A stretch of DNA of 64,000 bases from Bilabrum cf. latius (lineage: Eukaryota). The stretch is from the NCBI GenBank assembly GCA_965178125.1, contig OZ237751.1:248001-312000 (forward strand), written 5' to 3'. Of this stretch, positions 1 through 64,000 are shown one piece after another. Each line of letters opens with the position of its first letter. Position 1 is the first letter of the stretch. A program made the position numbers and the translations under genes. Below the pieces are notes generated by a model. That model ran no database searches. It was not told the DNA's origin and saw nothing but the letters and a program-made list of their open reading frames with translations.

Positions 1-1847
1 CAAAGGAAGTCTCCTTTGCCCACCCAGCCACAGGGGATGCCTCCTTTGTGTCGCGGGCGAAGGCCACCTGCGTCAGGCAGATGAGAGACTCGACAGCCAG
101 AGCAAAGGTTCCGTCAGCCATGTCCAGCAGGTGTGGGAGCACCCCTCCCTCCACGAAGAATTTCGCGTGCTGCTCCCCCCTGCCGGGAGGAGACACCAGG
201 TTGGCCACCACCCACATGGCCTGCTGCTTCAGCGCAATCACATCCACCGGGGCGGACGCACCGCCCACCAGTCCCCGGGCATTCACACTGGAGCTGCCCG
301 GCCCCTGAGGCACCGAGTGGTCCAGGCTTGGCACGGGCCCGGCTTGCCCCGCGCCTATTGCGCTCCTCGACGACTCCTCGGCTGCCTTCGCGGCGGGGTG
401 TTCCCCGGTTAGGATGCCCCTTACGGAGCGCATGATGGAAGGAACGGCCGCTACTGCCTCCGTGGGCGCATGGTGGCTCGTGACCCCGCAGCTGTTCCCC
501 ACAACGGTCAGCAGCGGTGCTGCCATCCTGGACGTCCTTGCGTGAAAGAGCGCATTCCCGGCCAGCCTGAGCCCCCCTTTGTTGATGAACTGCTTAAGGA
601 TATTGTCATGCACCTGCACGATCATTGCCAGCAGCTGGGCCGCTTCGGCGCCTATGGTTTCGTCCACTGGCCCAGAGGCATGGGGGCCAGCACCGCTGCC
701 ACCCTCCTTGCTCTCGCTTGCACCAGCACCAGCACCAGCACCGGCACCCTGTTTGAAGGCAACTCCCGCCATGGCAGCCCGCTCTGCTGCGGCCTTGCTC
801 ATGGTGACTCCGTCAGAGCCGCTCGCGCCCGCCTAGTGCGCGGCCGCCGGTCTCAGCCAGTAGAGGCAGAGGGCCACCACATCCAGCTCGAGGATGGTGC
901 GAGGCTCTAGCCCCGGTCCCCGCATCATGTTGGTCAGGGCCCAGAGGCACGTGCTGGCGAGAGAGATGGGCCGCTGGTAGGCGCTTCGCATGATGGCGGC
1001 GAATGCGCCTTGGGCCAGAAGAACGTCCCGCACTCGATCGAGAGAGGCGGCCATGGTGCCGAGCGCGTGCACGGCGTACTCTGCCATTACCTTGTGCTCA
1101 CCCTCGGCCAGGCGGATGATTTCGGGAGATACTTGCATGACGTAGTCCACGTGTTCGTCTGTGCCCGTGGCAAGCGTGTCCACGATCCAGACGGCTTCGA
1201 GGCAGTGGGCATCCAGAACCGAACTCCGCTGCTCGCCCCTGCCGCCCCGAATGAAGAACCGCAGAGCTTCGATCAGATTGAGGTCCATGACAAACTCCAA
1301 TGGCGGGTCATCGTCTTGCGTTATGGCGCGTCGGATCATCTGCAGCCCTTCCAACTGGTGCCTGGCCTTGGGGCCCCGGATTGCCTTGCGAGCTGCCTCC
1401 CGTAAGGCGTCTGGAGATATCGCGATGACTGGCTCAGGCCCTCTGCAAGGAACAATTCTTGAATGAGTTTTCAAAATTGCGTGTTTACGTGGTGAGAGGA
1501 GGCTGTCTGGGAGATCGTGTATCCGGGAACGAGCAGCACTCACCGTCGTCGAGTTCGAACCAGCCTCTTTTCCCGCTATAATCGAACCCGCTGTATGCTT
1601 TTGCTAGAGCGTGCCTACGAATACATTGAATCGATGAGTAACCCTTTGTTCGGTGCATTCCTAAAGAAAGCACTGGCTTGTGTGAGTCTGATGCAGCAAA
1701 TCACTTTCTCACTCGACGGCTTTCCTCTTTCGAAATTGTCTGTTTCACTTCGCTTCGTCTCTGCTCCAATACTTTCTGCGCTGCATCACCTCGGCCACTC
1801 ATTGGCTAGAAGCCCACAGATGCCTCCAAAGGCCTGCCAGATGACAT
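1..1847 (-). CDS. Importin-alpha-like armadillo-repeat protein with IBB-like basic N-terminus (TMCO6/importin-alpha-like); 3' end runs off the window
   Basis: ORF 833-1543 has ARM-like repeats (LEAVWIVDTLATG, AVHALGTMAASLDRVRDVLLAQGAF, TCLWALTNMMRG). The frame continues past TAG 833-835 (AGASGSDG...AEAAQLLAMIVQ...PLLTVVGN). The ORF 'start' GTGAGT at 1543 is a splice donor (intron about 1443-1543). Upstream exons give KEESRR...SIQRVRL(TAG)REKRLVRTRR. The start ATG and first intron are tentative. Confidence 0.65.
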
Positions 1848-1963
1848 TCGAATCCAAGCTTGGGTGATGACGAGTGATTTTGAAACGGTTTAGGGCAGTC
1901 GCACGGTTGTAGATTGAAAGCTGTTCAATGCTTACAATATTCTGTGCATCTCGGTGCTCTGCA

Positions 1964-3108
1964 TCACATCCATCCACCTTTACCACCACCGACCCCACCC
2001 CCTTGGCCCTGACCCCCCCTCTCAAAGTACCCCTTCCGCGTCGCTTCCTCCGCCAGCATGGACTGCACCTCGTCTGCACTGTCACCCCCTCGACCACCAC
2101 CCCATCCCCTGGCCTCTAACGCATCCTGCTACTGGCTGCCGCCGCCGCCCCCTCCCATTCCCACCGTCTCCAAGAGCACGTGCTCCGCACCCCGCTGCGC
2201 GGACTCATGCCCGAAATGGGGGGGCACGCACAGCCGGGGCCGCACAAACCTGTCCATGATCCGGTGCACAAATGTGTCCAGCGGCTCCACGATGAGCGGG
2301 ATGGTGGAAAGCCCCACCACAGTGGGAAGGAACCGCCGCACCATGGGGTGGCCGTGCAAGGTCCTGGCGGTGGCCCGCAGGGCCTGCATGCCGGGAGACT
2401 CTGCTCGCAGCTAGGCGGCACTGGCCGTCGTGCTGGACTGTGCAATCGGCTCTAGAGCTTCCACTCCTGCCTGAGTGGCGGCCACCACCCGGTTGATGGC
2501 AAGGCCAGGCAGCGCTACGGAAGCGAAGCCCTGCCACAGGAGCGTATCGGCCGCGGCCGCAGCCGGTGTAGGCGGGGCTGTTCCATGGTCTGCACTGCTC
2601 AGGCTGTCTCGAAGAAGCTTGACGTGCTGAATCGTTTTCTCCGTGACCTATGGGCTTTCATCCTTTGCTTGCTGAGCCTTACGGTAGTCGTCCTCCGCCG
2701 AGCTGACCATATCGCGGACTCTACTGACTTGTTGGCAACGCTGCGTGGAAATTCGGTCCGAACAATAGTGTTTGCTGTGTCAAATGTGCTACTTCTGCAG
2801 TGTGATCCGTCCAGAAGCTCATACACGTGGTATCTTACCGCCTATGCTTTGGTCGTTTTGTCGTATGTGTCGCACAGGACATACCCCGCAGCAGCGATGT
2901 ACGAAGGGTAGTATATTTGAGGGAGTACTGGCTTGAATGCCTCGCCGAGTTCGTTTGCGTATCCAAGGTACCTGAGAGCAGTGTCCCTCCAAATGTCTGT
3001 GCTCTGCACCGATGAATCATCGCTACCCTGCGACTTTGCTCCGGCAAACTCGTACTTATCCCAATCACAATGCAATTTTGAACTAGAGGTGTCCGTATTC
3101 TTTGCCAT
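1964..3108 (-). CDS. MTFP1: Mitochondrial fission process protein 1 (MTP18/MTFP1 family)
   Basis: Family motifs DIWRDTALRYLGYANELGEAF, YVLCDTYDK, DTLLWQGFASVALPGLAINRVV, PTVVGLSTIPLIVEPLD. Intron 2741-2838 (GTAAGA...CGCAG). In-frame TAGs at 2842, 2648, 2411 and 2129; ends at TGA 1964-1966. Confidence 0.85.
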
Positions 3109-3445
3109 TATGGGATATATCGCTGCAAGTGCGAGCTGGGCGACCTGAAATTGAGCCAAGCCCAGGAGACGCTGACGAATGCGCTATAAATCGCAATATT
3201 TTGCTTGAATAAAGCTAGTATCCTGATCATAATCAAAGCGAATGATTTATGCTGTATTGACTTCTCGTGTCGGTTGCCCAAGACGCTACAATGCCTTCAC
3301 TGTGCTCAGCTAGAGCTCGGATCCTGGTGGGGAGCAACTGCTCTCAACGCGGGTGAGCTCAATTGTGCTCGTACCGTGCAGCCCCAACCACCATCATGTC
3401 CTACCAACATGCAAAGATCCTACCCTGCGATGCCTGATTCCCGCC

Positions 3446-6400
3446 TCATACCTCTGCAGCAGATTTTTGGCTTGCTTTCTCGTCGTTACCCCCGGAGGGA
3501 GGGCCGCCTTCCTCGAGCTGCCGAGACTTGCCCGAACTCGAAGCCAGCTCCATTTCGGCGGCGCGCCTCTGCTTGTGTGCCTGCTCAACCAGGTCGGTTC
3601 CGAAGAGCATATCGCTCAAAAACACGTAAAAGTCCCCGTCGGGGTACTGCTCGGGCCCGAATACGATGAGCATGGGCGGCAAAAAGAGCATCGTGTACAG
3701 GAACGCGATCAGGAGGCTCAGGAAGAGCGTGGACCCGAAGATGGTGAAGAAGGGCAGCGCTGCTCCGAACAGGAAGCTGGATGAGATCAGGCTGGTGCTC
3801 GCTCCCCCCACGATGGACACGCCGAGCTCCAGGAGGGCGTACCTCGTCCTGAAAAAGGTCCCCTTGGCCCTGCTGGTCGCGTACGAGATGATGATGTGGG
3901 TGGAATAGTCCACGGACAGCCCTACGAGAACCGACGCAGAGATAGACTCCACGAAGTCCAGCTTGCGTCCCAGCGCCACGAACATGCCGAGGATGCCCAG
4001 CACGATGCCAGCCACCATCACCAGAGCGATCAGAGCAACGCGCCAGTTCCCGCTGGACACCAGCAGGCACACGGCAGCGACCGCCACCGATGCTCCTACG
4101 GCCTACCACGTGGCCTGCACCATCACGTTGCTGGTCTGGAGGAAGGCAAATCGGAAGCTGGAAGTGAAGCCCTTGTTGTACCCCTACTCGGCCTCGTCGT
4201 TGACATCGTCAAAGTGCTCCGTCCATGCGTCGTAGTGCCTCTGCTGCTCCACCCTCCCTGGGTTGAAACTGATCGACATGTTGAACCTGGACCGGATGAA
4301 GAGCAGCTCGTCGCCCGCCTGCCCCGTCACCCCACCGAAGAACTCGCCCACGAGGTCCTTGACCGGGAACTGGGAGACTGTGGCCACCGACACGGGGTCA
4401 GAGGCGTTATAGTTGGGATCCTGGTAGGTCTGCGAGAAATTCCACATCGCGGAAGCCATCTGCTCCTTGCCGGTGTACGCCTGCACAGCCCCAAACTGCT
4501 CCCGCTGCCAGTCCACGAACATCTGGACCGGACAAAACATACCGATCCCGCCGGCCAAAAAGAATGGCGAGGAGTCGTCGGCTGGGTTGAACCGGAGCCC
4601 GACCAGATCCTGGCATACCCCCGCCAGATGCTCCTGCGCTGCCACGCTGGTGGGGTTAAACTCTTGGTCGTACCGCACAGAGCCGACGTTGTTTTCGTCG
4701 TTCGGGTCGATGCCGCTGCGGTCGAGCGGCCTGCCGGGGTCCACGCCCCAGATGCCGTTCACCTCCGCTCCCGACCCCTGGCTCTCGGATGGCCTGAACT
4801 TGGGCTGCAGAATCTCCACGATCTGATAGATCTGGCTCTCCTCGGGAAGGCCGACCTCCTGCTCGTCCGGACCCTCGAGGTACGCAGCACCCACAGCCGA
4901 CAGCACGAGGAGACAGAGGAATAGGCCCAGCAATGGGAACCTGAAGTTGTGCGTGAAAGGCGCCCAGTACTTGTAAAAGAACTGCTCGATGCTGCGGAAG
5001 GAGCTGATGTCTACTGCACGGTGTGTCGCAGTCGAGGTGTCGTCGCCATCGCCGCCTGGCGCTTGGCCTGGCGCACTGGCCCCACTGGATCCCGCCTGGG
5101 CAACTGCAGCTGCCGGCAGTTTCTTGGATGCTTGGGACTGCAGGGGCTCGGGGGCCCACACGTCGACCCCTTCCTCTCGCTTCCTTGCAGCGGCCTCGTG
5201 CGCCTTCCTTCGTGCTTTGGCTGCGTTCTTGAGCGACTGGCTGGCCTCTGAACCAGGCTTCAGCGCCTCCTCATCGATGCGGCGCTGCTGGGCGTACGTG
5301 TTCCAGCACGACAATCCGCAGCAGTCGTTTCCGCAGTACTCGTCCGGCAGCTTGCTCCTGCAGCAGCACTGCTTCTCCATGCCCCACAGGTGCCAGAGCA
5401 CCACAAAGGCCGCGAACGTCGTGATGGTGTGGCAGTACACGGCAAGCACCATGAGGCTTGAGAGAGTGCCGAAGGAGGCGATCGCGGGGATCGGTGACGC
5501 ACTCGTCACACCGAACGCCACCGCGGTGGTGAGGGATGTGACGAACATCGCGTTTGCCGCCCGGGACCAGACCCAGTCCACTCGCTGGGGGAGGCCCTCG
5601 TCGCCCTTGGGCCCCACCTCGCTCTCGGGCTCGTGCTCGGACTGCTTCCAGGCGTCCAGCATCACGAAGATGTCATCTGTGGGGCGATCGGGCAAACGCA
5701 GAAACTGACAAAAAGGATGGGGGCTTCATGCGGGCGACGGTGCGCTCTGCAGATGGTGCCACTATGCAACTGTGGGAGTGGTCAATTTGCTCACCTGCAC
5801 CAATGCCGAGGATGATGAAGATGGCTAGCAGGTTCAGCTGGGGGCTGATCTTGATGCCCAGGATACCGTGGTAGATCGCCAGCGCGCAGGGGTAGCTCCA
5901 GGCCACACCAAGCACGCCCACGACTGCGATGATGGTGCTGCCGGTCTGCATGCCCACCACCAGAGCGACACTCACGCCAGCAGCGGCAGTCAGCAGCAAG
6001 TCTCCCTGCACGAGTCGGCTGATCTCCACGGAGGAGAATCCGTCCGAGTAGTAGTTGGACTTGAACGTCCTAGGACTGGCGTCCTGCAGGAAATCCAAGT
6101 ACTGGGTGGACCACTCCTGTACCTCCTCCTGCTGCTCGTCCTCCTTGTCAAGCACCGTGTTGTAGTCGGGCAGCGGGCCACCGAAGAATAGGTATACCTG
6201 CGTGTACTTGGCCTTGTACACAGGCGGGCTCTGCTCCACGCCCTCAAAGAACTCGGCGCTCACGAAGAAATCGGAGCCCCCGGGCCACTCGTTCTCGTAG
6301 GCCTCCCGCAGCCGCTGCTCGACGAGCGCGTCCGTCAGGTTGGCCACATCAGCCGAGGTGAATGGCTCGCCCTGAAACACGATCACCTCAAGGGGGCTGT

Positions 6401-7161
6401 AGAAGGACGCGCACTTGCCGTTCAGGTACGTGGGCTTGTGGCAGTAGTCTGGGAAATCGTCAATGGTCTGCCCCTGGAATGAGGGCGGGTTCTCGATCTG
6501 GTCCTGGTCGTAGGGGAAGCTCGAGGGGCCCAGTGCCTGCTGGTAGGCGTGCAGCTCCTGCATGGTGGCTGCAGTGAAGAAGTTGTCGCTCCTCGAGGTC
6601 ATGATGAACCAGTTAAGGTACTCCTGCGGTAAGTGAGATAAACTTAAATGCGCGGGTTGTACGTGGAAGAGAGTGGGCGGCGGGTCGGGCATGAGGGTGC
6701 GTCGACGCACGCACAGGGCTTTTTTACTGCATGCGACCTGCTCGGCTCACCGCTTGCGACAGTGTGGGTTGCGAGGACACTGCTGCTTCATTAGAGTCTT
6801 CGATGATGGCGGATAGCACTTGCCTGTGGAGGAGCATGGCGAGATTGTTGTTCGGTGCGTTTCGGGGACAAATCGGGGAAAGTGCGGCGACTCGTCGCGG
6901 ACGCGGGTATGCGACCACCGATTCGTTACCTCACGCTTGGGCAACAGCCGGCTCGTTCAGCGCAAACAACTGGCCAGGGCTATCAGCTTCGGAATCGCCA
7001 GTATCTAATAGTCCTGGAGTAAAAGATAGCGCTACAAACAGCAGCATCAACACAAAGCCACCGGCGAACACGAGCAGCGGCTGTGTTGCGATGCATCCAG
7101 TGAATGCCCTCCTAGCTTGCACCACGACGTTCTCATCACTTCCAGACCCACCAGCCTGCAT
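3446..7161 (-). CDS. Dispatched/Patched-family RND (sterol-sensing domain) membrane protein
   Basis: FIILGIGA|DDIFV, AMFVTSLTTAVAF, LVGLSVDYSTH, FFTIFG and many TM helices. Introns 6824-6934, 6624-6750 and 5677-5794. In-frame TAGs at 4184 and 4103 join ORFs 4184-5695 and 3446-4087; ends at TGA 3446-3448. Confidence 0.88.
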
Positions 7162-7492
7162 GTTCGGCTGACTTGAAGTTTGCTAAGTTGTATTGGACAT
7201 TGGGCTTACTCGGCCACCTGCCTGCGCGCTAGCAAGAGGTGCGTTGTGATCGACAACGATCGATGCACCAAAGCTGCCTGTGGTCCGAGCACCTGGCGTC
7301 ATCATGATAGCGAGTCTGAAAGTAGTCAACATGCAGTATGCTTCTCACCATATAGCGCGAACCAGAGCTGCTTCTGTTCTGAAGTGCAAAGCTGAAGTGA
7401 CACACAAGACCCAAATGAACCGCTTAGCGCCGCGCAATAACTCTCAGCGGAACCTCACGCCGGCGGGTCGGGTCAAACCATTTCTCTCCAGC

Positions 7493-10400
7493 ATGATTGC
7501 GTGCCTCGTGTGTCTTGTATGTTTTACACTTGCACTAGCATCGCCCGGATCTGTTAGTCTCGTGACCTCGAGTGATAGCTGGGTCGCAGTTGAGGTGAAA
7601 CAAGGTACAGCAGGCTATCGCGTCGTAGTCTCCAGGACCAATGGTGCACTGCTTGCAGTCCAGAATTCGGTGTCTAGACCGGTCAGTACATCAATGAATG
7701 TTTCGATGGGATCGCACAACTAGTGCTTGTGGGGTATGTTCGACTCGGCGCAGGGTAGCTACGTTGGTGGCTGCAGCTTTGGTGGCAGCTCGCAATTTAG
7801 CATGCATTGGAATGGTCAGCCAGTAGGTTTACTGACCCAAGAGGCATTTAATTCATCTGTTGGTACGCTGTAGCTGATATACAACGACACGGCTGCTGAC
7901 AGCACTTCAGATCAACAGCAGAGCTCCATCGGGGCTGCGGGGACACTCGTGGAAGTCAGCTTCACGTTCAATGCCTCGGTTGGCTTTGGTGGCAGCACCA
8001 GCAAGTCCAACAAGAATTCGCCCGCACCTTGGTTTGGCGCATCGCTCCGGGTGCACAGCGCCCCGGACGGCGTCTCGCCCTCGAGCCCGCTCACCACGCT
8101 CGCCTTCCCAAGCGAGCTCCTCTTCCCGGGGAACAGCACCGCGGGGGCCACGATCCCATTCCTCCCCGGCGCGCGGCTGCGGAGGGGGTTCTTCGGCCGG
8201 CTCCTGCCGGGGTCGGGGTCGGGGTCGGGATCGAATTCGCAGGAGGAGCAAGTGCTCGGGAGCGAGCAAGGGGAGGGAGCAATCCCGCGGTGGACGCTCG
8301 ACTACCCGGGCCGCGGATGCTTCGCCGATTTCTGGCACACTGCGATCGATTCTCCTAGCAGCGATTCGAACCGTGCGAGCGTTGGCGAGGACCAGGACCC
8401 GTCGGGGGGCCCTGGGATGGCCGTGTTCGGGGTCGCTGGCCCCCGCGAGGTGCAGCCAGCCTCCTTCGGGCCGGTCAAGGCGAGCACGCCGGATGGCTGG
8501 TTCTTGAGTAGGACCATGCCGATCAACCTGACTCGGCCGGGGCCAGTGTCCGGCCCCGAGTCCCCCCTGATGTTGCCCAGTGGGGGCTCCCAGTCTGGGA
8601 CGGCAGGCACCGCAGTCTCGCCCAAGTCTCCGTGGATCAACACGGGCATCTGCATCGGCGACTATGCCGGCTGCCTCGAGTCCATGGCTCAGGCCAATGG
8701 CCTCAGGGACGAAGATGCTTACCCACCGCTGCCCGCCCGCTTCGAGTCCTCCCCCTTCCCCGCCGACAAGAAGACGCAGAGGCCCGTGCAGCGGCCCGCG
8801 CTTGCGGAGTGGCTCAAAGCACCGCTCATGAAAGCAGACGCGCTGGCGCTGGGCGGCATCCCCTTCAGCCAGTACGGTGAAAAGGTTCTTCCGAAGCTGC
8901 CCTCTCCCTGCATCCTGCACCTCGCCGCGTACGAGCCTCATGGATTCGACCGCTGGTACCCGGACATGATCCCACCTGCACAGCAGCTCGGCAGCACCTG
9001 CGACTTTAGGAGCATGCAGCAGCTGGCCAACTCGCAGTTTGGACTCATCACCATGCCGTACACCAACCCCACGTGGCTCGACCCCCTCGCGCCCACGCTG
9101 CAGAGCCTGCCCCAGCACGGCCTCACCCTGTCCGACGTGTGCGCGCTCAACGGCACCCTGCAGCCGTTCGTGGAGTCGTACGGTCCCAATTCGGGGGTGG
9201 TGTCGGAGCCCAGGCACCCTTTCATCTCCTCGAGGATGCATGAGCTCGTGCTGCAGATGACAGCCAACGGTACCGTTGCCGAGGAGGGCATCCCCACTGG
9301 AGGACTCGACCAGTGCGGCGGAGTCGACTCAGATATGCTGTTCGAGGACCAGATCTCGGCCAGGCCACCCATCCCGGACAGGCAGCTCCTCGCGAGGGAG
9401 GCCCCCCTCCACGGGTGCCCGGGGCAGGCGCTCCTTGGTCCCATCTCGGAGGCGAGTCATGCGCATGCTTTGGCCCCGTCCTCCGAGACGTGCTGGTTCT
9501 TCGGGGGCGGGCCGGGTTACCTGGACGGGTGGAGGCTGCACGTGGCCAACCACAGCGACAGCCCCCCACTGGCTGCCGCATCGGTAGGCACGGGCAACGA
9601 GGGCGCCAGTGGGCGCTCGATTCTCCTCCACAGCGAGCAAGGGTTCGACCGGCTGATCGGCAGAGGCGGGGTGGCATCCTCATGGGGTGCCATCCTGGGC
9701 GCGCAGCAGAACGGGCAGACCGCCTCGTGGTTCGGTGCGGACTCCATGGACGTCTGGCAGCCGGTTCCGCTGGCGGAGCAGCTATTGCGCGGCGCCGCAG
9801 TGTTCTCCCAGCACGACCTGAGCATGACCACGTTCTCGATCGACACGGACCAGCTGGCGTGGGCCGTGGGCATGGGCATGCACACGAGCCTCTCGTCCGC
9901 GTACAAGTTCGACCAGGGCTGGGCCGACGGCGTGGCGGATCTGCAGCGGCTGGTGCTGTCCAGGTACGCCTGCGACCGCGTGGTCTCTTTCGATTTCATG
10001 CAGGGCACTGCGGCGCGGCCAGACGAAGAGAGTCCGGCGTCGTTCCCCCTGTGGCGGCTTTAGCTGGAAACTGCCACTGTGATTCGGAACCAGGACTCGG
10101 GCGCCGCGCATGTGGTGCAGTTGGAAACCGAGTACTCTAACGTGACGCTTGAGTACGGCCTGGCCGAGTCTGGGTTCGGCCTGCAGTGGGCTCGTCCGGG
10201 GCCTGGGGCCCGGCAGCCGGTCCAGGCGTGCCTCGAGGAAGTAGAGGCGGCCGCGAGGCCAGGCAATGAGGCTCTCTTTGCCCCTGGTAGGAGAAGCGTG
10301 GGGCTGTGGGCGGAGGGGAGGGCGGGTTCTGCCGTGGCCGGGGCATTCCAGGAGCGGTACGGTGGAAGTCAGCTCAGCGCGGGGAGCCACGTGCTGGTCG

Positions 10401-10762
10401 AGCTGCGCGGGGTGGCGTGCGGTAGCTCTGCTTCATCTTCATCTTCATCTTCCGCGCCGAGCAAGGGTGCCCTCACGGGCCCGATGTGCATCCTGGTGCT
10501 GCAGCCCAGCGGCAATTCGACTTCCTTGCGAGTGGCCTGGGACCCCAGCTGGCCCACGAGCGGTGCGGCGACGGGGGTGGTGGTGGTGGCGACACCCGTG
10601 GGGCGGGATGGCAGTCCCGTGGGCCCGGGTCACGATGCGGTCCTGGAGCCGCCGCAGGGTACTCAGCCTGGGTTTGCTACGTTCCAGTGGAACGAGGCCG
10701 TGGCTGCTCCTGGGGGCGAGCAGGCCGGCAGGCCTTGGGGTTACCTCCTGTCCGTGGCATGA
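7493..10762 (+). CDS. Secreted protein with an uncharacterised bacterial-type, putative glycoside-hydrolase-like domain (DUF6259-like from memory)
   Basis: Signal peptide MIACLVCLVCFTLALA. A single frame runs through TAGs at 7721, 7871 and 10061 to TGA 10760-10762. Motifs LHLAAYEPHGFDRWYPD, MPYTNPTWLDP, MLFEDQISARP, HSEQGFDRL. No intron is needed. The family call is uncertain. Confidence 0.6.
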
Positions 10763-51697: not shown

Positions 51698-54600
51698 ATG
51701 ATCCCTTTGCGTGAGCCATTGTTGCAGAAAAGAGGAATTCCAACGAACAAGGTCATCGCCAAGGTCGAAGGAGCTGGAGCAGCGATCCTGCCGTCGCAGC
51801 TCAAGCAGCTGAAAGCTGTTTGTGACAGCCTGTAGTGCGTATCAAAGCCCAAAAGGCTTGATCCTGCGCATATGAGATTTATTTTTGCAGAATTGCGGGA
51901 AATCGAAGCTGTCCCGGTGGCTATTCGTCTAGATCTAGTTCGAGCTGCAGCGGTCGTATCGACGACAAATCGACCTGAGATCGTGCGGAGCGCCATTGAA
52001 CTGTTGGACGAGTCGCTTGGCATTTTGAATGATCTCAGTCAGTCAGTTGGCGCTCGAACTATTGCTTGTGATCTTTGCGCGTCTCTTGTAGCAAGTAGTA
52101 CCGATGATGATTGCCACGTACCGGTTGCGCTCGACCTCATCGCTAGCGGCGTCAGCGTCATCTAGCCACCTGAAGAGGCTATGCTTGGCTCTATGGCATA
52201 GCGTACCAAGCTTGCTTTAGCTGGAGCTCGTCTGCTGGCAACCATTGCGTGGTGGGTGGGGAGCACAAATGCAAGCAAGTTGAGCGCAGCAGCCACAAAG
52301 CTTGCGCTTCAATGCCGACTCTGCATTCAGCAAGATTTATGTCGGGATCCTCATGATCGTCTGCCTGGGGTGCGGTGCGCACTAGTTTTGGCTCTAGGCA
52401 CGGTATGTTGCTCCAACGAAGAAGTTCGGCACTGTGTGGTCAAAGACGACAAGTTTATGACAAGCCTGTCCTCAGAGGTGGACCAACAAAGCAAAATCGA
52501 TGGTAGGGATGCATGGAGGGGTGCAGCTGCCGGTTCTGCTCGCGATCTCGATCGACAAGCCAGGCAGGCAGAGAGAGAGCTCCACGAGCTGCTGGTTGCA
52601 GGGCCGGCCAGCGGCCTCGTAGCCCGCGACGCTCCGGCTTCCACTGCACCAGTGCCAGTGGCTGGCTATGCTGGGGCCCAGACCAGCTCGGCAGCATCGG
52701 CTAGCACGTCTGGGGCGCTAGCGCCTTCGCCAGTGGCTGGCTATGCTGGGGCCCAGACCAGCTCGGCAGCATCGACTAGCACGTCCGCGGCAAGGGTGCC
52801 AGCGCCAGCACAAGCACCAACACTATCACCAGTGACTGCGACAGCAACAGCTGGGGCGGTTGCTCGGCATGGTCAAGCAGAATCAAACAACAGGGCTGCG
52901 CTCGAGATGTTCAACGGACTGGACGAGGTGGCACCAGTGTCTAGAGGGGCGGGTGGTGCCATGGATCCAATACGAGGCGAAGGAAGTAGCTTCAGCTCCA
53001 GTCTAGTTGATTTCATCGAGGGCGACCAAGACGATGAGAAGGCGTGGGATCCCCAGGTTGAGTTCGATGAGGCCAGGCAGAGCGTGTCCCTGTCCGTGTA
53101 CGAGGAAAATCAGAGGCAAGCTGCCATCACTGGAGTAGGCAGACGGTTCCAATCGCATGCTATGGAGGCAGCCAGAGGTATGCCAGCACTTCTTGGACTC
53201 GGGCAGGTCATCTCGGAGACAACAGACGCACATATGCCGGTGGCTGCGCCTGCAGATCCGGTGGATCCACCTGGTCGCGTGCTACCGGCATCCGGAGCTG
53301 GTGCAGGCGATGCCCACAGCCCAGATCGCACCCTTGCAGACGTTGTAGCGACAGCAGGTCTCGTCCGAGTGGCTGTCGGGGGTGAAGCAGGCGGGGCAAA
53401 AGCAGAACACAAGAAGTTTGGGCTATTCCTCAAGACCCCGGAAGACAGGTTTGGCATGTACGGTAGCGAGGTCATGGCGGCCAAGGTCATGAAGCTGGAG
53501 ATGAAAGCAGCCAGGTGGGTGCATGAGATGGACTCTGTACATGCCGGTGGGGTCCTGACAACCGTGATAGATGTGCCTTTTGTGCGCGCTGAACCTGAGA
53601 TCGGGGATGCATCCGGGGCTGGTCCCAAGTCCCGGGTGCCTGAGGTGGGCGGGGTGCAGCGGGTCCAAGTCTAGGCAAGGCTGCCGGTCGGAAGCAGCAC
53701 GCTACGATACGGATCAAATGACTCCGGGAAGACGATCCACAAAGACGCTGAGCTCCACAGCGATGTTGTAGTGCCCCTCATGGATCACTTCCACCTGCGA
53801 TCCATTGGGCACTAGCACAACCAGTGCAAGAATATCGTTAAGCATTCGTACGAAGCGCGTTGCCTATCAGAACCTGGTGGGACCAGCTCGGGCGCCGCTG
53901 TCGCTGCCACTACCGCTGGCTCCATGGACGGGCTAACTCGGAGGCGGTTCAACCTGCGTGATGAACTGCGCTCCGCTGGTGTCGATGTTGCAGAGCTGGA
54001 CAGCGCTGCCATCCCTTCTGACTTCGGCGAGGATTCGGTCGACACGATGATTGCGGACAGTCGCGCACTGCTAGATTACGCTGTCGAGAGTGGCACTGTT
54101 TAGCACAAATAGATCGAGTTGCAAGCAGCCACTGCACGGCGCAGCGGGTTGGAGTGCGATCCGTGGAACTGTGTGATGCATGCCTTGCCCTTTGATGTCG
54201 AGGTGCATCAGCTTCCTTCAGGGAGACGGATTGTGCTCGACAGTCACCGATTGCTCATGCCAGACCTCCATTGGATTGACTGGATGCGATCACAGAACGC
54301 CCTTCCTCGCGTATACGCATTGCACAAGGTCACTACTGAATCAACGTAGGTTGAGGCTGCAGCCGGCGCAATGCATGACAGCACGACGGCAGTAGATCCG
54401 GCTGTCGGTGAAAGCGAGTCAACAGTACCCCCTCTACAAGCGATCCCAGCCACCAAGTCAGCATTCTCGTTGAGGGTCCAGGAAGGGGTGCTCCCGGAGC
54501 ACATTCCGTGGGATTCCACAATGAAAACAGCCGCGCCTGCTGCAGTGCAACACTGGGCCGAGAGTTGCGGCGTATTACGTGGAGGGGCAAAAGTTTGTCT

Positions 54601-57600
54601 GCATCTCGGATTCAGGGGAGCAGGCCTTGTCTTTCTTTCCGCCGAGCAGTTGGATGGATCTGGCGTGCTGTTTGTGCTGGCATGCCCGGCCTGGTACTGG
54701 GGCAACTTGCCCGAGATAACGTGCTTATTCCCGCCAGAAGCTGCCTCAGTAGTCAAAGAACTCAGGGATACCGATGGCAATGTCTTGCCCCGCGTCGCCC
54801 CGGATGCTGTGATGCAGAATGGAATGGATCCCGATGGTCAGCACAAGGCCGATCTCAGGCTCGTGTCAGCGGCTCTGTGCAGCGAAGTCTAGATGTGTTC
54901 GGTGCACGCTGAGATACTCAGCGAATTGGACAAGCAGCAGTTATCAAATCGCGATCAAGCTGCACCCTGCAGCTCTGGCAGGTCATCATCCACGTGGAAC
55001 TCTTCAGCATCATCTAGCTTTCCAGCTGCATCTTCGCAGGCGCTTGAGAACATAGCCGGCTTCGGCTCTCGTCTATTTAGTGCTAGGCAAATTGTGAAAG
55101 GTGTTTTGAAGAAGTACGGTCTATGCCTTAGGCACTTTGGCATGCTAGTTGAGGCGGTTGAGAAGAACAATTGGCGCGAACTCCCCCTCATTGTCTTGGT
55201 TGCGTGCACGTTGCCTCGGGCGATGTCGCCTGCGGGACACGAGCTTCAGTCAGCGATCAAATATGCCACTTCTTTGTGGAGCAACCAGCAAGCAGGGAGG
55301 GGCTGTCTCGCTGCATCGATTGGGTGTATGCCACCTCAGCTGCTCAGAATTTGTGCCGTGGCTCGAGGGTATGCAGCCAGGGGGTGTGCCGGCCGGTACG
55401 GCACTTTGGACGCAGATGCACCACTGGTCGCCGAGGGTGCTGCCACTGAGCCACTATTGGAGCTGCTAGTGCAATGGCATCGCGAGCAGCAGGATACGTT
55501 GGGATCTGCAGCTGGCTAGTCCGGTGACATACCTTAGGAAGCCGGCCAAATCACGCCACACATGCGCACAACAGCTGCCGCTGGCATCCAGCACGCCAGC
55601 AGCTCTGGCCCAGTAGTCCGTAAGCTGGACGGGTCGATTGACCTGTAGCACGGTAGAAAGCAACTCGATCGGATGCTTCGTGAGCTAGCTCATGTGCAAC
55701 GTGTGGGTGGCACGGCAGAGCAGCAATTGCTGATGTCAATTTCGCTGCTTGGCCAGCGAGGCGCCGAGTACCGGCCTCTAGCGCTGCAGTGCTTGATGCG
55801 AGCAGGTGGCCTTTCCCTGCTTGCACAGGAACACGACTGTTCGAATTGGCCGCGAGTCTATAAAGAGAGAGAAGTTGCAGCGGAGCTCGCCGCACTAGGA
55901 TGCATGACCGCATCTGCAGGAATCCTTGAGCGAAAAGTGACAGATACGGGGGCAGAGGCAGTTATGGTGGGTTGCAGCCTAGCAGATATCAAAGATAAGG
56001 TTGGAAAGCCTGAGGAAGCCGTCAAAATTCTGAAGGGGTGTTTGGACGCGCTGCTGTCTAACGCGGACTCCAACGCTCGGTTCGTTGCCATCATTCGGCA
56101 CAACATCGCAAACTGCTTGTTGCGAGCCGGACAGTGTGTTGAAGCTATTCCGTTCTTCGAGCAAAGCCGGAAGGGAATGGAGAGCTTGCGCATGACCACG
56201 CACTCTGCGTACTGGAATTCCCTTCACTGCCACGCAAATTGCTTGTTTCAGCTTGGGCGGATGCCGGAGGGAGAGGAGCTGTACAAGCAGTGCTTGGAGG
56301 GGACGCGCAAGCACCTTGGGCCTGACCACCCGAAGCACTTGGACATCCAGCAAAACTACGCATCGATTCTCATTCTCAATGGATGTAGCTCAAAGGCTTT
56401 GAGTATATTAAGGAAGGTCGAAGAGGCCCAGGTGCGACTGCTTGGCAACGGAAGCTTGTTGACCATTGACACGAGCGTTCGGCTGTGCAGGTGCCTTGCC
56501 GCCCTGGGAAGGCACGATGAGGCAGTGGCTACAGCCGATCGGCTTATCCCAGTTGCCAATCAATCGCTAGGTGTGTCTCACCCCCACGTATTCATGGCTC
56601 GGTTGACTCGAGCGATGGTTTTGACGGTATCGCGCCGATGTGCGGAGGCACTCCCTGACTTACGATTGGTCGAGAAGGAAGCGGTCGTTGCACTCGGTAG
56701 CGGCCACACCCTGCACCTTGAGGCAATACTTAAGTAGGCTCACTGCCATGAAAGGTTGGGGCAGATTCAAGAAGCGTACAACGCCGCAGCGAGGTTCAAG
56801 AGCTGCGCTGATCCGAGCCGAATGGATCGACTTTATGTAGAGGGCATTACTGCCTTTGCGTACTATGCATTCACGCTTCGAGACTTCGAGACAGCCAAGC
56901 AGGAAATATTGCGAATAATGCCCGCAGCTCGATAGCTCTTTGGGTAGGAGAGCCTGCGGTACTGCAAGAACTAGAGCCTGCATGCCGCCTGCCTGCGAGA
57001 GCAGTGGCTGCTCACGCGCGACTCATCCAAGATCACGCAGGCGTGCGACATCTTCCTGCAAATCATTGCTTTGATGCGCAACTTTGTTGACGTGAACGAC
57101 TCTGACCTGATGGAGACAATGGGGAACTGTGTGTTGTGCCTCGCGGACGCCGGGCGGTATGCAGAGGCTCTGCCCCTCGCTCGCGAAAGGTGCGCGTGGG
57201 ACCAGAGGGAGTACGGGAAGCTGTCGCCCAAACTTGAACCTATGTTAGAGCTGCTAAATGAGTGCCATCGAGGGCTCAAAATGTCCGCGGGGGCACAGAG
57301 TGCTCAGTCACAGATTGGGCAGACGGTGGGTGAGTTCAGCACCTTGGATAGCCTGCAGCGCGGGTCTCAGGCTGCTGCTATGCTACTGCAGGCGAACAGG
57401 GGAGAGGAATCCGTGGCCATGTTCTAGAAGTGCCTGCAGGGTGCCACGAGTCTTTTTGGCGCGACAGATCCGAACACTCTTGCTGTGAAGTAGAATCTGG
57501 CTGCCGCTCTCGTGTAGGTTGGGCGGTCTCGAGACAGTTGGAAGCTGTTTCGGGAGTGCATTGGCGCCTTGGAAGCGGAAGGTCACTCACTGCAAGCAGC

Positions 57601-57883
57601 AAGTATTCGATTAAACTTTGCAAATAGTTTGCTTGCTGCAAGCAAGTACGGCGAGGCTCTCGAGTGCCTAGAGCACTGCATCCGGGTGCTGCCTCGAGAG
57701 GATCCTTGTCGGGTGGAGGCCTCAATCTACGCCTCCCGGTGCCATGAAGGACTCGGTGACCGCGAGAAGGCGCTCGCAGTCATGCTAGAGGCTCAATTTG
57801 CTGCGCAACAGGTGCTCGGATCAGCACATCCACACACGCTGTCCGCTGCTCATGAATGCGAGCGACTCATGGGGGGATCGTAA
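51698..57883 (+). CDS. Clu-domain plus TPR-repeat protein (CLUH-like architecture; paralogue B, about 2061 aa)
   Basis: KFGLFLKTPEDRFGMYGS..AAKVMKLEMKA, VLTTVIDV, RVQV(TAG)ARLPVGSSTLRYGSNDSGKTIH, LPFDVEVHQLPSGRRIVLDSHRLLMP, VLKKYGLCLRHFG, then kinesin-light-chain-type TPRs (LGPDHP, LGVSHP, LGSAHPHTL). A single frame with about 19 TAGs; ends at TAA 57881-57883. Confidence 0.8.
52655..52785 (+). repeat. Two-copy internal duplication (75-bp period) encoding PVAGYAGAQTSSAAS(A/T)STS
   Basis: CCAGTGGCTGGCTATGCTGGGGCCCAGACCAGCTCGGCAGCATCG(G/A)CTAGCACGTC at about 52655 and 52730. Confidence 0.85.
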
Positions 57884-58145: not shown

Positions 58146-61052
58146 TCACGCCAGCTCGACGGCACTTGGCTTACGCAGCGAACACTCTGACGAGAAATGA
58201 ATAGCCAAGACCTGAGCTTGCCACGCGTCCAAGCGCACCCACATCCCTGGTGGCAGGTGACCTGCACAACCTCCCGCCACGTCGATGAAATCCCGCCAGA
58301 TCGAGTTGACTGGACGCACATACATGTTCTTTCCCTTATCAACGATCGTGGATACTCCAGCTCCGTGAAGCTGCTCGACCACAGGGACTACTGTGTCCTC
58401 AAATCGAATGCTGGCGCTGTCGCCAGAAGCAGCCGCGAGGCACTGATTGAATCCGAGCCCAGGGGGGGCCAACTGATCTGGTCCAGGCTCTCGGCTTGCA
58501 ACAGCATCACAAGCAGCTGTAGGCCAGCTTCCATCCTCAGCTGGCAGCCTCGTGGCATCGGTATGCACCTGCGTGGCAGAGCCAGGGCTACCATCAGTGC
58601 CAGCGCTCCCGATCGGTAGATCCACTATGCTCGCATTGGACGCGCTCGCGCCATCCTGTACAGGCTTAGACCGCTCGTACAGAGCTTCCCGCCAATCCAA
58701 GAAAAACTCCGCGGGGCGGCTGGATAAGTTCACCAGCACAAGGGTGGCTTGTACTGCCGAGTAGTCAGCTCGAGCTCCACCTGGCTTCTCGCTAGGCTCC
58801 ATCAGGGGGCTATCGCTCATGTAAGACCACGCAAGCATGGCCATTACGCGATCAGGGGCATTCATTGCATCACGTGACTCACCGCCGGAACGGACAGGCA
58901 GGTAGGTACGGTACCCACCGACTATTTCAGGACGCCGAGCAGCTGCGAGCAGCTAAGCATACACGCGCCGCGTAGGCTGGTGCACCGGCTCTGGATGCCG
59001 CGCTCCATCTGCATGCATACTGTGCTTGATGAAACGGCCGCTCATCTGCCCATCATGCACAAAACGAGCGCCACTGCATCCTATGAGCGCAGCTACAGCG
59101 CAGGCGAAGTGCGGAGTGAAATGGCTCGGTATCGTGACACCCGTCGAGGCATCTATTGATTTAGCGAGCGGGCCGAACATGGCTGCAGCGCGTTGCTCAT
59201 CGTGATTCTCCAGAAACCTCACGCAGCGCAGAGAATATCTAGCATCTGCGCCGCTAATGTGTCCCAGCACGCTTTGGCTTGCCATCCCTGTAGCCTCTCC
59301 AGGTGCCGCCCGCACGGCGGTCAGTAGCCGGTCATAGAGCTTCTTATCATACGTCCAGTCAAAACCACAGCGCTGCAGCAGATACTCGGTGTCAGAATAT
59401 GCTTCTGCCATGAAGAAGAAAGCCTCGTCGCGAGGTTGAGGCCGAGGCTTGTCGTCAACAACCTCTTCTGCAACGCCAGCTGGTGCCAGCGAGGGCGCAC
59501 TGCCAGTGCCGGCACGACGAGCGCAATCACCAAACTCAGCACAATCATCGGTGCATCTTGCCCCACTTGCAGGTATTGCAGAGGCTGCCTAGCGAGCAGC
59601 CCGAACGGCAGTTATGGCTACAGGCCAATACTCGGCAAGAACGTCTGCAGAATCGGCTGCGTGGCCAGCACCGCCTGGATATGAGACAACCGTGCGTGCT
59701 TCGTGCAGGGAGAACGGGATGGAATCAGCAGCATATGACCACCAAGGTGCCGCGGCAGACTTGCTCGTTCCGGTGGATACTGGTGCTGTGTTTGGTCCCA
59801 CCGAAGGTACTGCTGGTTCGACGTCGCGGCCATCTGTGCGCCGATCCTCCTCACTTCCCTTAGAGCCAAGCTATGGGCCATGGCCCACCGATGAGGCCGC
59901 TGCGATACTATCACGCGCAATACTTGACATTTCTTGTTGCCATTGCAGCACCAAGTCAGCTTCGTTGATAGGCTCGTCAGACCCGGAGGACGTTTCTCCA
60001 TCGGAGCTACTGGCCGCTGCAGGGGCAAGAACTCGTTTGCGCGACTGTACCAGTTTCCGCATGCTAGCAAGGGCTGCTTCTCTCTGCCCTTCCTTCCAAT
60101 CCTAGTTGCCGAGTATCTTGCCGCTAAGGCACGCCAGTCGCTGCCCATCCGGCTGATGAGCAGACCACGCGGCATGAAACCTCTCGTTGAGCTGAAGCAT
60201 CGCCATGTCGCAACGGACGCCATCTGCGAGGCCGCGCCCGTCGGGCCCGTAGCAAGCAATTTTAAGCAGCACGCGCAGCATCCTTCGACGCAGGTCTGTG
60301 CTAAAGTAGTTGAGCTGCAGCGTGTCGTGCCAGGCCGACCGGCCGCCCTCGCCACCGTGTGCGATGCAAGCAATTGGGACCCTCCGGGTCGCTGGTGACG
60401 AGTCGCTGCCATCCAATGTCGAGTTTTGTTTGCGCATATGCATACTTGGTTCCTCGTGCATGCCAACAAACGGCGGCATTGCCTGCAGCAGCGAGCCCGG
60501 GGATGGCACTGCTGGCGCAGCCGAGCTACTGTGGGCCTCTGTGCTGCGCGGCGCAACTTTCGTCGGATCAAACCACGCCCCGGCACTTCTTTGTGTAGCT
60601 AATTTAGCCCCACCGCGATGGGTGCCTACTGGCGCACTTATTGCGCAGTGCCGCAGCTGGATCCCGAGTGGATGATCCGCAGCGAGGTGATTCGGTATGA
60701 AGTCTAAGATCAGGCGCAAGCCCACTGCATTACAGCGTGCATGAAATCTATGCATGGCAATATCACCCCCGAGGGACTCTGCGACGCTGTACTCGTAAAC
60801 AGCGAACGGGCTCGATGCAGGAGCTGCGTGGGCAACCTCGGTAGCGTCACGGACTGCTGCAGCGGAGTGAGCCAGTCCAAATTGCCCCGTCGTCCACACA
60901 CCAAGCAAGTATAACATTGTGAAGCCTGCTCCTGCAATGCTTGCCAAATACTCAGATGGTATGTCATCAAGAGTGCTGGGGTTGCCCGATGCAGCTTCAA
61001 GTCGGTGAAGCAAGCTAGATGCCCGGACCTGCAACACCATCGGACTGGACAT
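58146..61052 (-). CDS. Glycoside hydrolase family 13 (alpha-amylase fold), uncharacterised bacterial-type subfamily; intronless, about 968 aa
   Basis: TLDDIP, LYLLGVW, SPFAV, LGGD, LILDFIPNHLAADHP, WHDTLQLNY, DGVRCDMAML (nucleophile D), FMAEAYS (acid/base E), GFDWTYDKKLYDRL, RFLENHDEQRA (third acid D). TAGs at 60102, 59871, 59589 and 58953 separate these motifs; ends at TGA 58146-58148. Confidence 0.85.
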
Positions 61053-61522
61053 GGTAGAAAGGGCTAAGTATATACAACGAGACTGGCGCGTACCGGCTGT
61101 TCAGCCAGCGTATGCGATTTTAAGTTGGCGATTTTCACATTCATCATTCGAATTTGTGTAACCCACTGTCTTTCGAATCTATTTTCCGAGCACCAAGCAA
61201 CGTAAGTCAAGCGCGTGAAGTTTCACGTTTGGAGCGGTATCGTGAACGTCTCCGTATCAGCCCCTGTCACAGAAAGCGATCCTCCGCAACCCCACTAATC
61301 TTCCCGCCGATTCTCAGCCCTCTCGCCCGGCAGCAAAGACTCAACCCCGCTCGAGTCGCCGTGGTAGAACGCTACTACTAACCGTGTCCGCGTTCGACTA
61401 CGTGAACGTCACATCCAGCCCGCACGAGTTGATCGGAACGGTGACCACCCGCCTGTTAGGTGTGAGCCACGCGGCCCCTCTGACTGCCCGCGCGGCTGCA
61501 ATTCCAAGGCAGGATTAGGTAG

Positions 61523-62219: not shown

Positions 62220-62343
62220 GCAACAGGTAGCATTGCGTGCCGAGCGATAGCCTTCATGTTGAAAAAGGTGTTTGCAACGAAAGCCGAAGAGGGCGAGAAC
62301 CAATTCTGCGAAGACACCGATTTTATTGTAATAAAGGCAGACG

Positions 62344-64000
62344 ATGTCAGCTACGGCTCCTGCTTCGGGAGGAAGTGATATTCTTGATACTATATGCCAG
62401 CAGCGCGGGCTAGATGTAGCGAGTGCAAAGGAGAAAGTCCCAGTAGAGGAGTTGATCGCAAGGCGGGATAGCAAGTACAGTCCGGACAGCATCAGAACGA
62501 TCCTGGATGTTTGCAAGCAAGGAGCTCCTGGGGGGATGGTTGCAGCTGAGTTTAAGAGAGCGTCTCCTAGCAAGAGTGATATCGCGTTGGGCCTCGATGT
62601 TGCTGGTAAGAACAGTATCTCCAGGGCCGCATACGTCACGACCATTGGCGCGGTACCAATCTATGATCTGTCTTACAGTCTTTTTCGCAGAACAAACACT
62701 CAAGTACGCCAGGGGGGGTGCCACCGTTCTTAGCGTGCTAACTGAGCCCAAATGGTTCAAGGGATCGCTTGTAGACTTGGAGCTAGCAAGACAGTCCAGC
62801 GAGGCTGCGCTAGGCAAGTCTCGGCCGTGTATGCTTCGGAAAGACTTTATCATTGATACGTACCAAATCGCCGAGGCCGCTGCATTTGGTGCAGATTGCG
62901 TGCTGCTGATCGTCTCGTGGCTTCGCACTGCCGACAAGGTGAAACCACTGATCGAGTACTCGAGGTCGCTAGGAATCGAGCCTCTTGTTGAAGTTCACAC
63001 AGAGGATGAAGCAGATGTAGCCCTGGCTAGCGGTGCCAAGGTGATTGGAGTGAACAACCGCAACCTGAAGACGTTCAAGGTTGACCTCGGCACCACGGGC
63101 AGGATCGCAGCCCACCTCGCGAGGTCCCCCGGTTGCAACCTCGCGAGGAACAAGGGCGAGGACGGCATCCACGTCATCAGCCTGTCTGGGATCCGCAGCG
63201 CCGACGATTTCGGCGACGTTCTGGGAAGCGCCGAGGGCCAGCCAGTGAGGGGCATACTCGTGGGCGAGCACCTCATGCGGGCAAGTGATCCGACCGAGGA
63301 GGTCGCGGGGCTGCTACGGGGGGTGAGTGAGAAGCTTCGCGCCGCGTCGGTGTCGAGAGACGGTGGCGGTACTGACGCTGCAGCCGCGGAAGTGGCCGCG
63401 GCCGCGGCCGCGGCTAGAGAATCGGCCAGCTTGTGCAAGGTGTGCGGGGTGCGGAGGGAGGAGGACGCCATGGCGGTTGCAACCTCTGGATCGGATCTGC
63501 TGGGTCTGGTATTTGCGACCAAGTCGCCCCGCTGCGTGACCGTGGAACAGGCCGCCGCGATCGCATCCAAGGTGCGCGCCTATCGAGAGCAGGACCCGGC
63601 ACCCCTCTTGCGCACGGCCCGAGGGTGGGCCAGCCACGCCCTGCGGGGAGACGCTGCTGCCGTGGGTGTCCTGGCTGCAGATAGCCCCGGCGCGTCGTCT
63701 GGGGCCGCGGCCGGTGGGGCCAGTGCAGGTGCAGGTGCAGGTGCAGGCTCTTCGTCGGGCGGAGCCGCTGCCGCTGCCTCCCTCTCGTCCACTGATATGG
63801 CTGCCGCAGCCACAGCGATGCTGGCCTGGCAGCACGGCATCCAGCGGGCCAGTGCTCGGGCCAGGCCGCTCGTCGTGGGCGTGTTCGCGGGCCGGACCCC
63901 AGAGCAGATCGCCGCTGCGTGGGCGGGCAGCAGCATCGACGTCGTGCAGCTGCACGGGGGCGAGGGGCCGGATCAGATATCAGAAACCGCACGCTACATA
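62344..64000 (+). CDS. trpCF: Indole-3-glycerol phosphate synthase fused to phosphoribosylanthranilate isomerase (TrpC-TrpF); 3' end runs off the window
   Basis: IGPS motifs AEFKRASPSK, LSVLTEPKWFKGS, LRKDFIIDTYQI, GADCVLLIV, PLVEVH, IGVNNRNL, LVGEHLMR. PRAI motifs CKVCGV, LLGLVFATKSPRCV, VVGVF, DVVQLHG. Intron 62606-62690. Confidence 0.92.

Follow-up and report, generated by a model that had tools for sequence, protein, structure and literature searches.

UAG as a probable glutamine codon in the nuclear genome of Bilabrum cf. latius, a protist with possible affinities to bicosoecid stramenopiles

The stretch of DNA analysed here, called the window below, is 64 kb long and comes from Bilabrum cf. 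latius (contig OZ237751.1 of assembly GCA_965178125.1, positions 248,001 to 312,000). It is about 60% G+C, and eukaryotic genes lie densely on both of its strands. The nuclear codon UAG is very probably an ordinary glutamine codon in these genes, with UAA and UGA kept as stops, an arrangement that corresponds to NCBI translation table 15. This variant of the code is already known, and the lineage in which it is now found is new.

With the standard code, the longest open reading frames (ORFs) from stop to stop in the window have 2188, 729 and 713 amino acids. If TAG is read as sense, the longest ORFs become 3385, 2188, 2081, 1587 and 1170 amino acids long. Reading TAA as sense hardly moves the longest ORFs (2243, 729 and 713 amino acids), and with TGA as sense the longest has at most 1197 amino acids, though many random frames lengthen. 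The 21 ORF segments that were examined contain 18,408 codons, among which there are 95 in-frame TAG triplets and no TAA or TGA. The other two frames of this DNA (the off-frames) contain 282 TAG, 97 TAA and 592 TGA, TGA being the commonest stop triplet in GC-rich DNA. Given the 29% share of TAG among the off-frame stop triplets, the probability that all 95 in-frame stop triplets would be TAG is about 1e-51. Since TAA and TGA also served to delimit the ORFs, there is some circularity in this test; support that is free of it comes from homology, from RNA and from relatives of the organism.

The number of in-frame TAGs downstream of the first ATG is 85, in 19 ORFs, which is an upper bound on the coding TAGs, as some may fall in 5' leaders. 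They are spread over 14 of about 18 genes. The four genes that lack TAG encode the FG-GAP protein, the CHIP-like protein, the NDK-like protein and the truncated IGPS-PRAI. Complete ORFs terminate in TGA (13 of 17) or TAA (4 of 17), and the ORF of the mitochondrial carrier also terminates in TAA; within the window, both triplets thus occur as terminators and never in frame. The first-pass annotation, which was made from the letters of the window, had put the TAG-bearing genes at 14 of about 19 and the in-frame TAGs at 90-100, with no internal TAA or TGA, and its figures agree well with these counts.

Reading through TAG restores whole conserved proteins, as had also been claimed in that annotation, with Pfam domains found in one frame on both sides of TAGs. 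In the BRWD/PHIP-like gene, a single frame encodes both the WD40 repeats, at about residues 700-1300, and the bromodomains, at about residues 3000 and 3200 (Pfam Bromodomain, E-value 7.8e-35, plus WD40 families), with TAGs situated between and inside these domains. Alignments with bromodomains of known structure in the PDB cross two of the TAGs. A frame of this length, 3385 codons with neither TAA nor TGA, would arise by chance with a probability of approximately 4e-28. The first six TAGs of this ORF may sit in a 5' leader. In the Dispatched/Patched-like gene, which matches the Pfam Patched sterol-sensing domain with an E-value of 1.7e-15, the alignment with the PDB structure of Dispatched-1 (E-value 7.5e-26) spans both TAGs. 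The CLU-like gene matches TPR_12 with an E-value of 9.4e-38, and its match to CLU is weak (1.5e-4). A paralog of this gene lies upstream of it, and the products of its two frames align with the CLU-like protein in BLASTP with E-values of 1e-36 and 1e-42. When the two paralogs are aligned, a TAG of one (44429) falls on a TAG of the other (53672-53674), within the motif QRVQVxA[RK]LP. To judge from this alignment, the common TAG would be either older than the duplication or maintained since. The housekeeping genes that had been named as carriers of TAG, namely those of the RNase Z-like protein (Lactamase_B_2), the mitochondrial carrier and MTP18/MTFP1 (a weak match, E-value 1.1e-5), were all recovered.

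The TAGs are retained in mRNA. Eight public sequencing runs were found to contain DNA of the window. Over positions 11228-31227 (20 kb), the DNA run X1 was compared with runs X5, X6 and X7, which come from two other studies and were identified as mRNA by their spliced joints, not by library labels. None of the eight runs is registered as RNA, and an automatic classification took X5 for probable DNA. A joint from 29863 to 29964 in the NDK gene (GT..AG on the plus strand) is present in contigs of X5, X6 and X7, and X1 is contiguous at this site. Similarly, a joint from 28535 to 28836 in the GT64 gene (CT..AC, equivalent to GT..AG on the minus strand) is found in X5, X6 and X7, and X1 is gapless there. 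The sequencing depth of X1 is mostly flat, at about 13 per bin; that of X5 varies widely, being about 2 in places along the BRWD gene and about 200 in the GT64 gene. Since the spliced joints are absent in X1 and the depth of X5 is uneven, X5, X6 and X7 hold spliced mRNA. Introns in the window are sparse and short, and these two are confirmed by the spliced contigs.

None of the four runs has a letter that differs from the window. One X5 contig of 5765 nucleotides spans positions 11276-16870 with no differences and no gaps, and it includes the RNase Z ORF with all 10 of its TAGs as well as the small convergent gene. The latter is covered without differences by contigs of both X5 and X6. Among the contig pieces listed, at least 22 TAGs are covered by RNA: all 10 in the RNase Z gene, 4 in the small gene, 3 of 24 in the BRWD gene and 5 in the tail of the GT64 gene, these last 5 lying in contigs of X5, X6 and X7 alike. 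Splicing, editing and sequencing error are excluded at these 22 or more TAGs. Two checks suggested in the first-pass annotation, for retention of TAG in RNA and for CAG in place of TAG in the reads, have accordingly come out in favour of TAG: the spliced contigs keep it without a differing letter, and the sequence of the window is borne out by both the DNA and the RNA runs, which come from three studies.

Two irregularities were seen in X7. One contig with a depth of 4.6 misses one base at 24917, in the BRWD ORF, which is probably an assembly error; the deletion does not occur in X1, X5 or X6. Another contig, at positions 28544-28865 and with a depth of 4, is unspliced over the GT64 intron beside spliced contigs with depths of 35-42. 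This suggests that X7 contains some pre-mRNA or DNA carry-over.

The same trait is carried by at least two relatives of the organism. In a close relative, four stored protein fragments (P0008, P0011, P0012 and P0009) that are 81-88% identical to the amylase-like protein of the window are encoded on one Logan contig of 3036 nucleotides. Fragment P0008 stops exactly at the window's TAG-317 (60102-60104), the boundary between P0011 and P0012 coincides with a CAG of the window (Gln-669), and P0012 has a glutamine opposite TAG-700 (58953-58955). The positions of these boundaries indicate that a single gene of the close relative has been split into four stored proteins by a gene caller that used the standard code. 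The amylase-like protein has 1720 homologs at E-values of 0.001 or lower in a full HMMER search.

A more distant relative is represented by a metagenome contig, L001, which is 12,680 nucleotides long and 58% G+C. Its longest ORF has 495 amino acids under the standard code. Reading TAG as sense gives ORFs of 1230 amino acids (18 TAGs) and 1086 amino acids (5 TAGs), while reading TAA as sense leaves the longest at 495 and reading TGA as sense extends it to 553. Four genes of the window have orthologs on this contig, namely those of IGPS-PRAI (64% identity), the amylase-like protein (36%), the ankyrin-repeat protein (69%) and the carrier (74%), and the IGPS and amylase-like genes are arranged head to head both in L001 and in the window. 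As at least two relatives have the trait, the reassignment predates their divergence. Positions 3911-12416 of L001 are partially syntenic with positions 48520-64000 of the window. The ankyrin and carrier genes are directly next in L001, unlike in the window, where the 6-kb CLU-like gene separates them from the amylase-like gene.

The amino acid encoded by UAG can be read from the orthologs. Alignments of the window with L001, in either direction, yielded 13 TAG columns in which 7 or more of the 21 residues around the TAG are identical. TAG faces glutamine in 7 of these (CAA in 4 and CAG in 3), and the remainder are serine (two), arginine, glutamate, glycine and threonine. Canonical glutamine codons face glutamine in 52 of 89 cases (58%) in the same alignments, compared with 54% for TAG. 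With a stricter threshold of at least 12 of 21 identities, the six remaining columns comprise five glutamines and one glutamate. Using substitution frequencies from the same alignments, the log-likelihood is -24.6 for glutamine, -41.3 for glutamate, -41.8 for serine and -45.0 for arginine, so that glutamine is ahead by 16.7 units.

Individual genes give the same picture. Both window TAGs of the ankyrin gene face CAG in L001, and the carrier TAG at 49098 faces CAA, with 18 of the 21 flanking residues identical. Conversely, the two TAGs in the IGPS-PRAI gene of L001 lie opposite glutamine codons of the window, one CAA and one CAG. Between the two CLU-like paralogs the glutamine signal is weak: TAG faces TAG once, glutamine four times, and glutamate, valine, histidine, arginine, leucine and serine once each. 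More distant homologs do not allow the amino acid to be read, as the TAGs fall at variable columns (lysine, serine, isoleucine or glutamate) of the PDB alignments of the bromodomain, Dispatched and the carrier or are not covered by them. The pairing of TAG with glutamine across species is in line with the table 15 that had been suggested beforehand.

TAG makes up about 11% of the glutamine codons in the ORFs of the window. Its share among glutamine-type codons drops with rising G+C content at third codon positions (GC3), with a Spearman rho of -0.70 and a p value of 0.006 for the 14 ORFs that have at least 15 such codons each. TAG accounts for 15-20% of these codons in the genes of the BRWD, RNase Z and CLU-like proteins and for none of the 66 in the FG-GAP gene; the genes with high GC3 (FG-GAP, Dispatched-like and the 1170-residue ORF) are nearly without TAG. 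This pattern of usage looks like that of a long-established, non-preferred synonymous codon.

The question of whether UAG might also terminate genes bears on a dual-meaning code, in which UAG would be glutamine inside genes and a context-dependent stop at some gene ends. Context-dependent meanings of UAR (UAA and UAG) or UGA are found in Condylostoma, karyorelicts and Blastocrithidia, and the ends of the read-through ORFs in the window are of no help here, being TAA or TGA by construction. Furthermore, the C-terminal tail of the GT64-like gene, which is not conserved, holds all five TAGs of this gene close together, and the first of them could be a real stop, which leaves this tail ambiguous. 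However, the two ortholog pairs that can be aligned to their ends, those of the ankyrin and carrier genes, extend past the last TAG. The C-terminus SKRPSVY of the ankyrin protein is conserved 3' of both TAGs; in the carrier the C-terminal GRR is conserved past the TAGs, and a TAG of L001 is found eight codons before this common end. In the window these conserved C-termini are then followed by TGA or TAA. The density of in-frame TAGs, 0.0052 per codon, is also near the off-frame density of about 0.0077, as it would be for an unconstrained sense codon. A dual meaning of UAG is hence considered improbable.

It is very improbable that UAG specifies another amino acid, such as leucine as in the rhizarian exLh, glutamate as in some ciliates or serine as in Scotinosphaera. 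Glutamate does lie opposite TAG in one well-aligned ortholog column, and isoleucine does so in two columns of distant homologs. Glutamine nevertheless outscores glutamate by the log-likelihood difference given above and the others by more, leucine, isoleucine and valine face TAG in none of the 13 ortholog columns, and the close relative has glutamine at the site of TAG-700 and a stop where the window has CAG-669. Still more improbable is that UAG has remained a stop with leaky read-through by near-cognate tRNAs, the TAGs being tolerated premature stops. No tRNA(CUA) was seen, as this explanation would have it, but the data contain no tRNA genes whatever. Single genes have 10, 20 and 24 TAGs, so that a per-site efficiency well below 1 would be expected to abolish the product, and the TAGs are conserved or exchanged with glutamine codons in three lineages, implying long-term neutrality. 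There is hardly any doubt that the TAGs are not an artifact or non-coding, that is, that they do not lie in introns or pseudogenes or arise from RNA editing or sequencing errors. No point in support of such an origin was found. The contigs that splice the two true introns cross TAGs unspliced and unedited, the concordance of the four runs extends to DNA and RNA alike, and pseudogenes would have gathered TAA and TGA too, of which there are none against 95 TAGs.

Several observations weigh against an ordinary glutamine codon. The evidence comes from one 64-kb window and one 12.7-kb contig of a relative. Six of the 13 ortholog columns are not glutamine, which in this small sample equals the rate expected for glutamine at this divergence. 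The two isoleucines mentioned above are found opposite the TAG of bromodomain 1, in bromodomain 2 of Polybromo, and opposite one TAG in Dispatched-1, each being a single column at 25-35% identity. The 1230-residue ORF of L001 matches no Pfam family and has the length of the frame as its evidence. No gene for eRF1, tRNA-Gln(CUA) or glutaminyl-tRNA synthetase (GlnRS) is present among the genes of the window, and neither the window nor L001 contains a tRNA gene, so that the mechanism is proposed by analogy; no Rfam family, and no 18S, was found in the window. The reading of UAG as a sense codon has good support from DNA, from RNA and from comparison of species. A TAG that appeared to occupy a conserved leucine of a TPR had been placed there by eye, in an alignment to a TPR consensus; this placement was distrusted and dropped.

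Assuming that UAG is decoded as glutamine, the decoding would be performed by a tRNA-Gln with the anticodon CUA, by the knowledge gained from other such codes. This anticodon is the only one that pairs with UAG and not with UAA, and it differs by one base from that of tRNA-Gln(CUG). The release factor eRF1, whose motifs for stop-codon recognition are GTS, NIKS and the YxCxxxF region, would have a weakened recognition of UAG, and the glutaminyl-tRNA synthetase would probably accept the CUA anticodon. The argument follows the reasoning set out for Iotanema in PMC5304391.

The genes of the window are listed in Table 1.

Table 1. Protein-coding features of the window, in order of position
Feature	Positions	Strand	Length or frames	In-frame TAG	End	Pfam match and remarks
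ORF at window start	2..1708	-	569 residues	3 in span, 1 past first ATG		No Pfam family; runs off the window start
MTP18/MTFP1-like	1964..3246	-	at least 2 frames	present		MTP18, E 1.1e-5, just above cut-off
Dispatched/Patched-like, sterol-sensing domain	3446..6746	-	overlapping frames 5673-6746, 3446-5725	4184, 4103	TGA	
ORF	7250..10762	+	1170 residues	3	TGA	No Pfam family; GC3 0.77
RNase Z / ELAC-like	11228..15991	+	1587 codons	10	TGA	Lactamase_B_2, E 2e-8
Small ORF	16111..16929	-	272 residues	5 (4 past first ATG)	TAA	No Pfam family
BRWD/PHIP-like (WD40 repeats, two bromodomains)	17016..27173	+	3385 codons	24	TGA	
GT64-like glycosyltransferase	27735..29582	-		5, in C-terminal tail		Glyco_transf_64, at cut-off; intron 28536-28835
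NDK-domain gene	29863..31383	+		none		NDK, E 2.1e-12; intron 29864-29963
FG-GAP repeat surface protein	32453..39019	+	2188 codons	none	TAA	FG-GAP, E 8.5e-24; GC3 0.79
ORF	39920..42061	+	713 residues	2	TAA	No Pfam family
Paralog of CLU-like gene	42116..46920	+	two frames, 42116-45094, 44641-46920	9 + 4 past ATGs	TGA	
CHIP-like, TPR + U-box	47059..48099	+		none	TGA	U-box, E 3.8e-24
Mitochondrial carrier (SAM carrier of the first-pass annotation; SAM, S-adenosylmethionine)	48520..49892	+	two frames	49098-49100, 49776-49778	TAA	Mito_carr, E 3e-46
Ankyrin-repeat gene	49753..51513	+		50332-50334, 50659-50661	TGA	Ank families
CLU-like / TPR_12	51638..57883	+	2081 codons	20 (19 past ATG)	TAA	
Alpha-amylase-family-like	58146..61100	-	984 codons	60102, 59871, 59589, 58953	TGA	
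IGPS-PRAI (TRP1-type)	62456..64000	+	cut by window end	none		IGPS, E 8.7e-55

The paralog of the CLU-like gene switches frame within the overlap of about 450 nucleotides (44641-45094) between its two long ORFs. The switch could be due to an intron, a frameshift or the decay of this copy. The two frames of the carrier gene are probably split by an intron. The 1170-residue ORF has a strong codon bias, and its product seems to be specific to the lineage and either secreted or located in a membrane.

Parts of the FG-GAP gene are duplicated within it in nearly identical form, and alternative frames recur in it every 2280 nucleotides or so. Between positions 35177 and 36153 it has a unit of 36 nucleotides repeated 27 times with 98% identity, which codes for a linker rich in serine, threonine and proline. 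Another tandem repeat, of 76 or 157 nucleotides (6 or 3 copies, respectively, 95-98% identity), occupies positions 27109-27573, just 3' of the BRWD-like gene. Its unit contains TAG triplets, and the Logan DNA contigs of X1 fragment into very short pieces in this region.

The best guess for the position of the lineage, made from one gene, is that it is a stramenopile near the bicosoecids. Among named sequences, the best match of the IGPS-PRAI protein is from Cafeteria roenbergensis, with 45% identity; oomycetes, brown algae and diatoms come next, and the two-domain arrangement of IGPS-PRAI is also present in the TRP1 matches from oomycetes. A quick maximum-likelihood tree of this protein was calculated with 33 rows, which included 31 of the 120 matches listed, picked as named or top-scoring. 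In this tree the window and L001 are paired (support 100) and belong to a clade of five rows together with Cafeteria roenbergensis, which has a support of 99 in the Shimodaira-Hasegawa-like approximate likelihood ratio test (SH-aLRT). Within the clade, the pair is sister to Cafeteria plus one other sequence with a support of 81; the branches are long, the path to Cafeteria being 2.03. The weak matches of the BRWD-like protein are partly from stramenopiles. The Cafeteria match and the tree fit the earlier guess of a bicosoecid stramenopile, as far as one gene can show.

The lineage is poorly sampled, as can be seen from its two large lineage-specific proteins. Word-index searches among 5.8 billion proteins found no close homolog of either the CLU-like or the BRWD-like protein. 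The searches returned distant relatives, which align with 2-15% of the query at 26-35% identity and are uninformative for the TAG columns.

A literature search, with most subscription journals outside its scope, turned up no stramenopile or bicosoecid for which a nuclear reassignment of UAG, or of another stop codon, has been reported. It appears moderately likely that the present case is the first nuclear code change in stramenopiles: an independent, complete and old reassignment of UAG to glutamine, decoupled from UAA and common to a clade of bicosoecid-related flagellates. The clade would comprise the organism of the window, the relative with about 85% protein identity and the environmental relative with 36-74% identity.

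If this is true, the changes in tRNA-Gln(CUA), GlnRS and eRF1 that have been only predicted for Iotanema become directly testable, because both DNA and transcriptomes exist. Another independent origin in a different supergroup would strengthen the idea that the change of UAG to glutamine is the easiest escape from the standard code, and also the view that UAG and UAA are mechanistically separable. Few nuclear code changes are known from outside the ciliates, and codes that give UAG and UAA different meanings are rarer still, those named in PMC5304391 and PMC11687900 being from a rhizarian, Iotanema, Scotinosphaera and several ciliates. There is also a practical consequence. Gene callers that use the standard code shatter the genes of this clade. 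In databases of genomes and metagenomes, this skews the number of genes, the estimated completeness and the outcome of homology searches for these organisms.

Codes in which both UAA and UAG mean glutamine (NCBI table 6) are used by many ciliates, hexamitin diplomonads, some ulvophytes, oxymonads and Amoeboaphelidium. The code of the window resembles these in the reassignment of a stop codon to glutamine. It differs from them in that UAA is unused as sense (none of 18,408 codons) and ends 4 of 17 ORFs and the carrier gene. Among the users of such codes, a tRNA-Gln(CUA) has been described from Tetrahymena, Condylostoma and Spironucleus (PMC5304391).

Among ciliates, a group with frequent code changes, PMC11687900 reports that UAG is glutamine in Protocruzia tuzeti and in two phyllopharyngean lineages and that it is leucine in other phyllopharyngeans. 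As in those ciliates, where glutamine is the commonest outcome, UAG is here decoupled from UAA. Unlike the ciliates, the present organism has 60% GC, has its best matches among stramenopiles and shows no nanochromosome features in the window. Outside the ciliates, UAG is leucine in the rhizarian exLh and serine in the green alga Scotinosphaera (PMC5304391 and PMC11687900). These are likewise non-ciliate nuclear codes in which UAG alone has become sense, but leucine and serine are disfavoured in the window by at least 17 log-likelihood units.

The closest parallel in the assignment itself is Iotanema spirale (Metamonada: Fornicata), in which UAG is glutamine and UAA and UGA are stops, the first documented case (Panek et al. 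2017, PMC5304391). In both organisms UAG alone has been reassigned, to glutamine, with UAA and UGA kept, and in both it faces glutamine at nearly the rate of the canonical codons, 41% versus 44% in Iotanema and 54% versus 58% here. The main stop is UAA in Iotanema (104 of 119) and TGA here (13 of 17), and the present organism has a GC-rich genome and groups with stramenopiles, an unrelated supergroup. A further point of comparison is a change in eRF1 such as T32G; the eRF1 gene lies outside the present window. Iotanema was known from a transcriptome, in which the tRNA could not be searched for, whereas genomic DNA exists for Bilabrum cf. latius.

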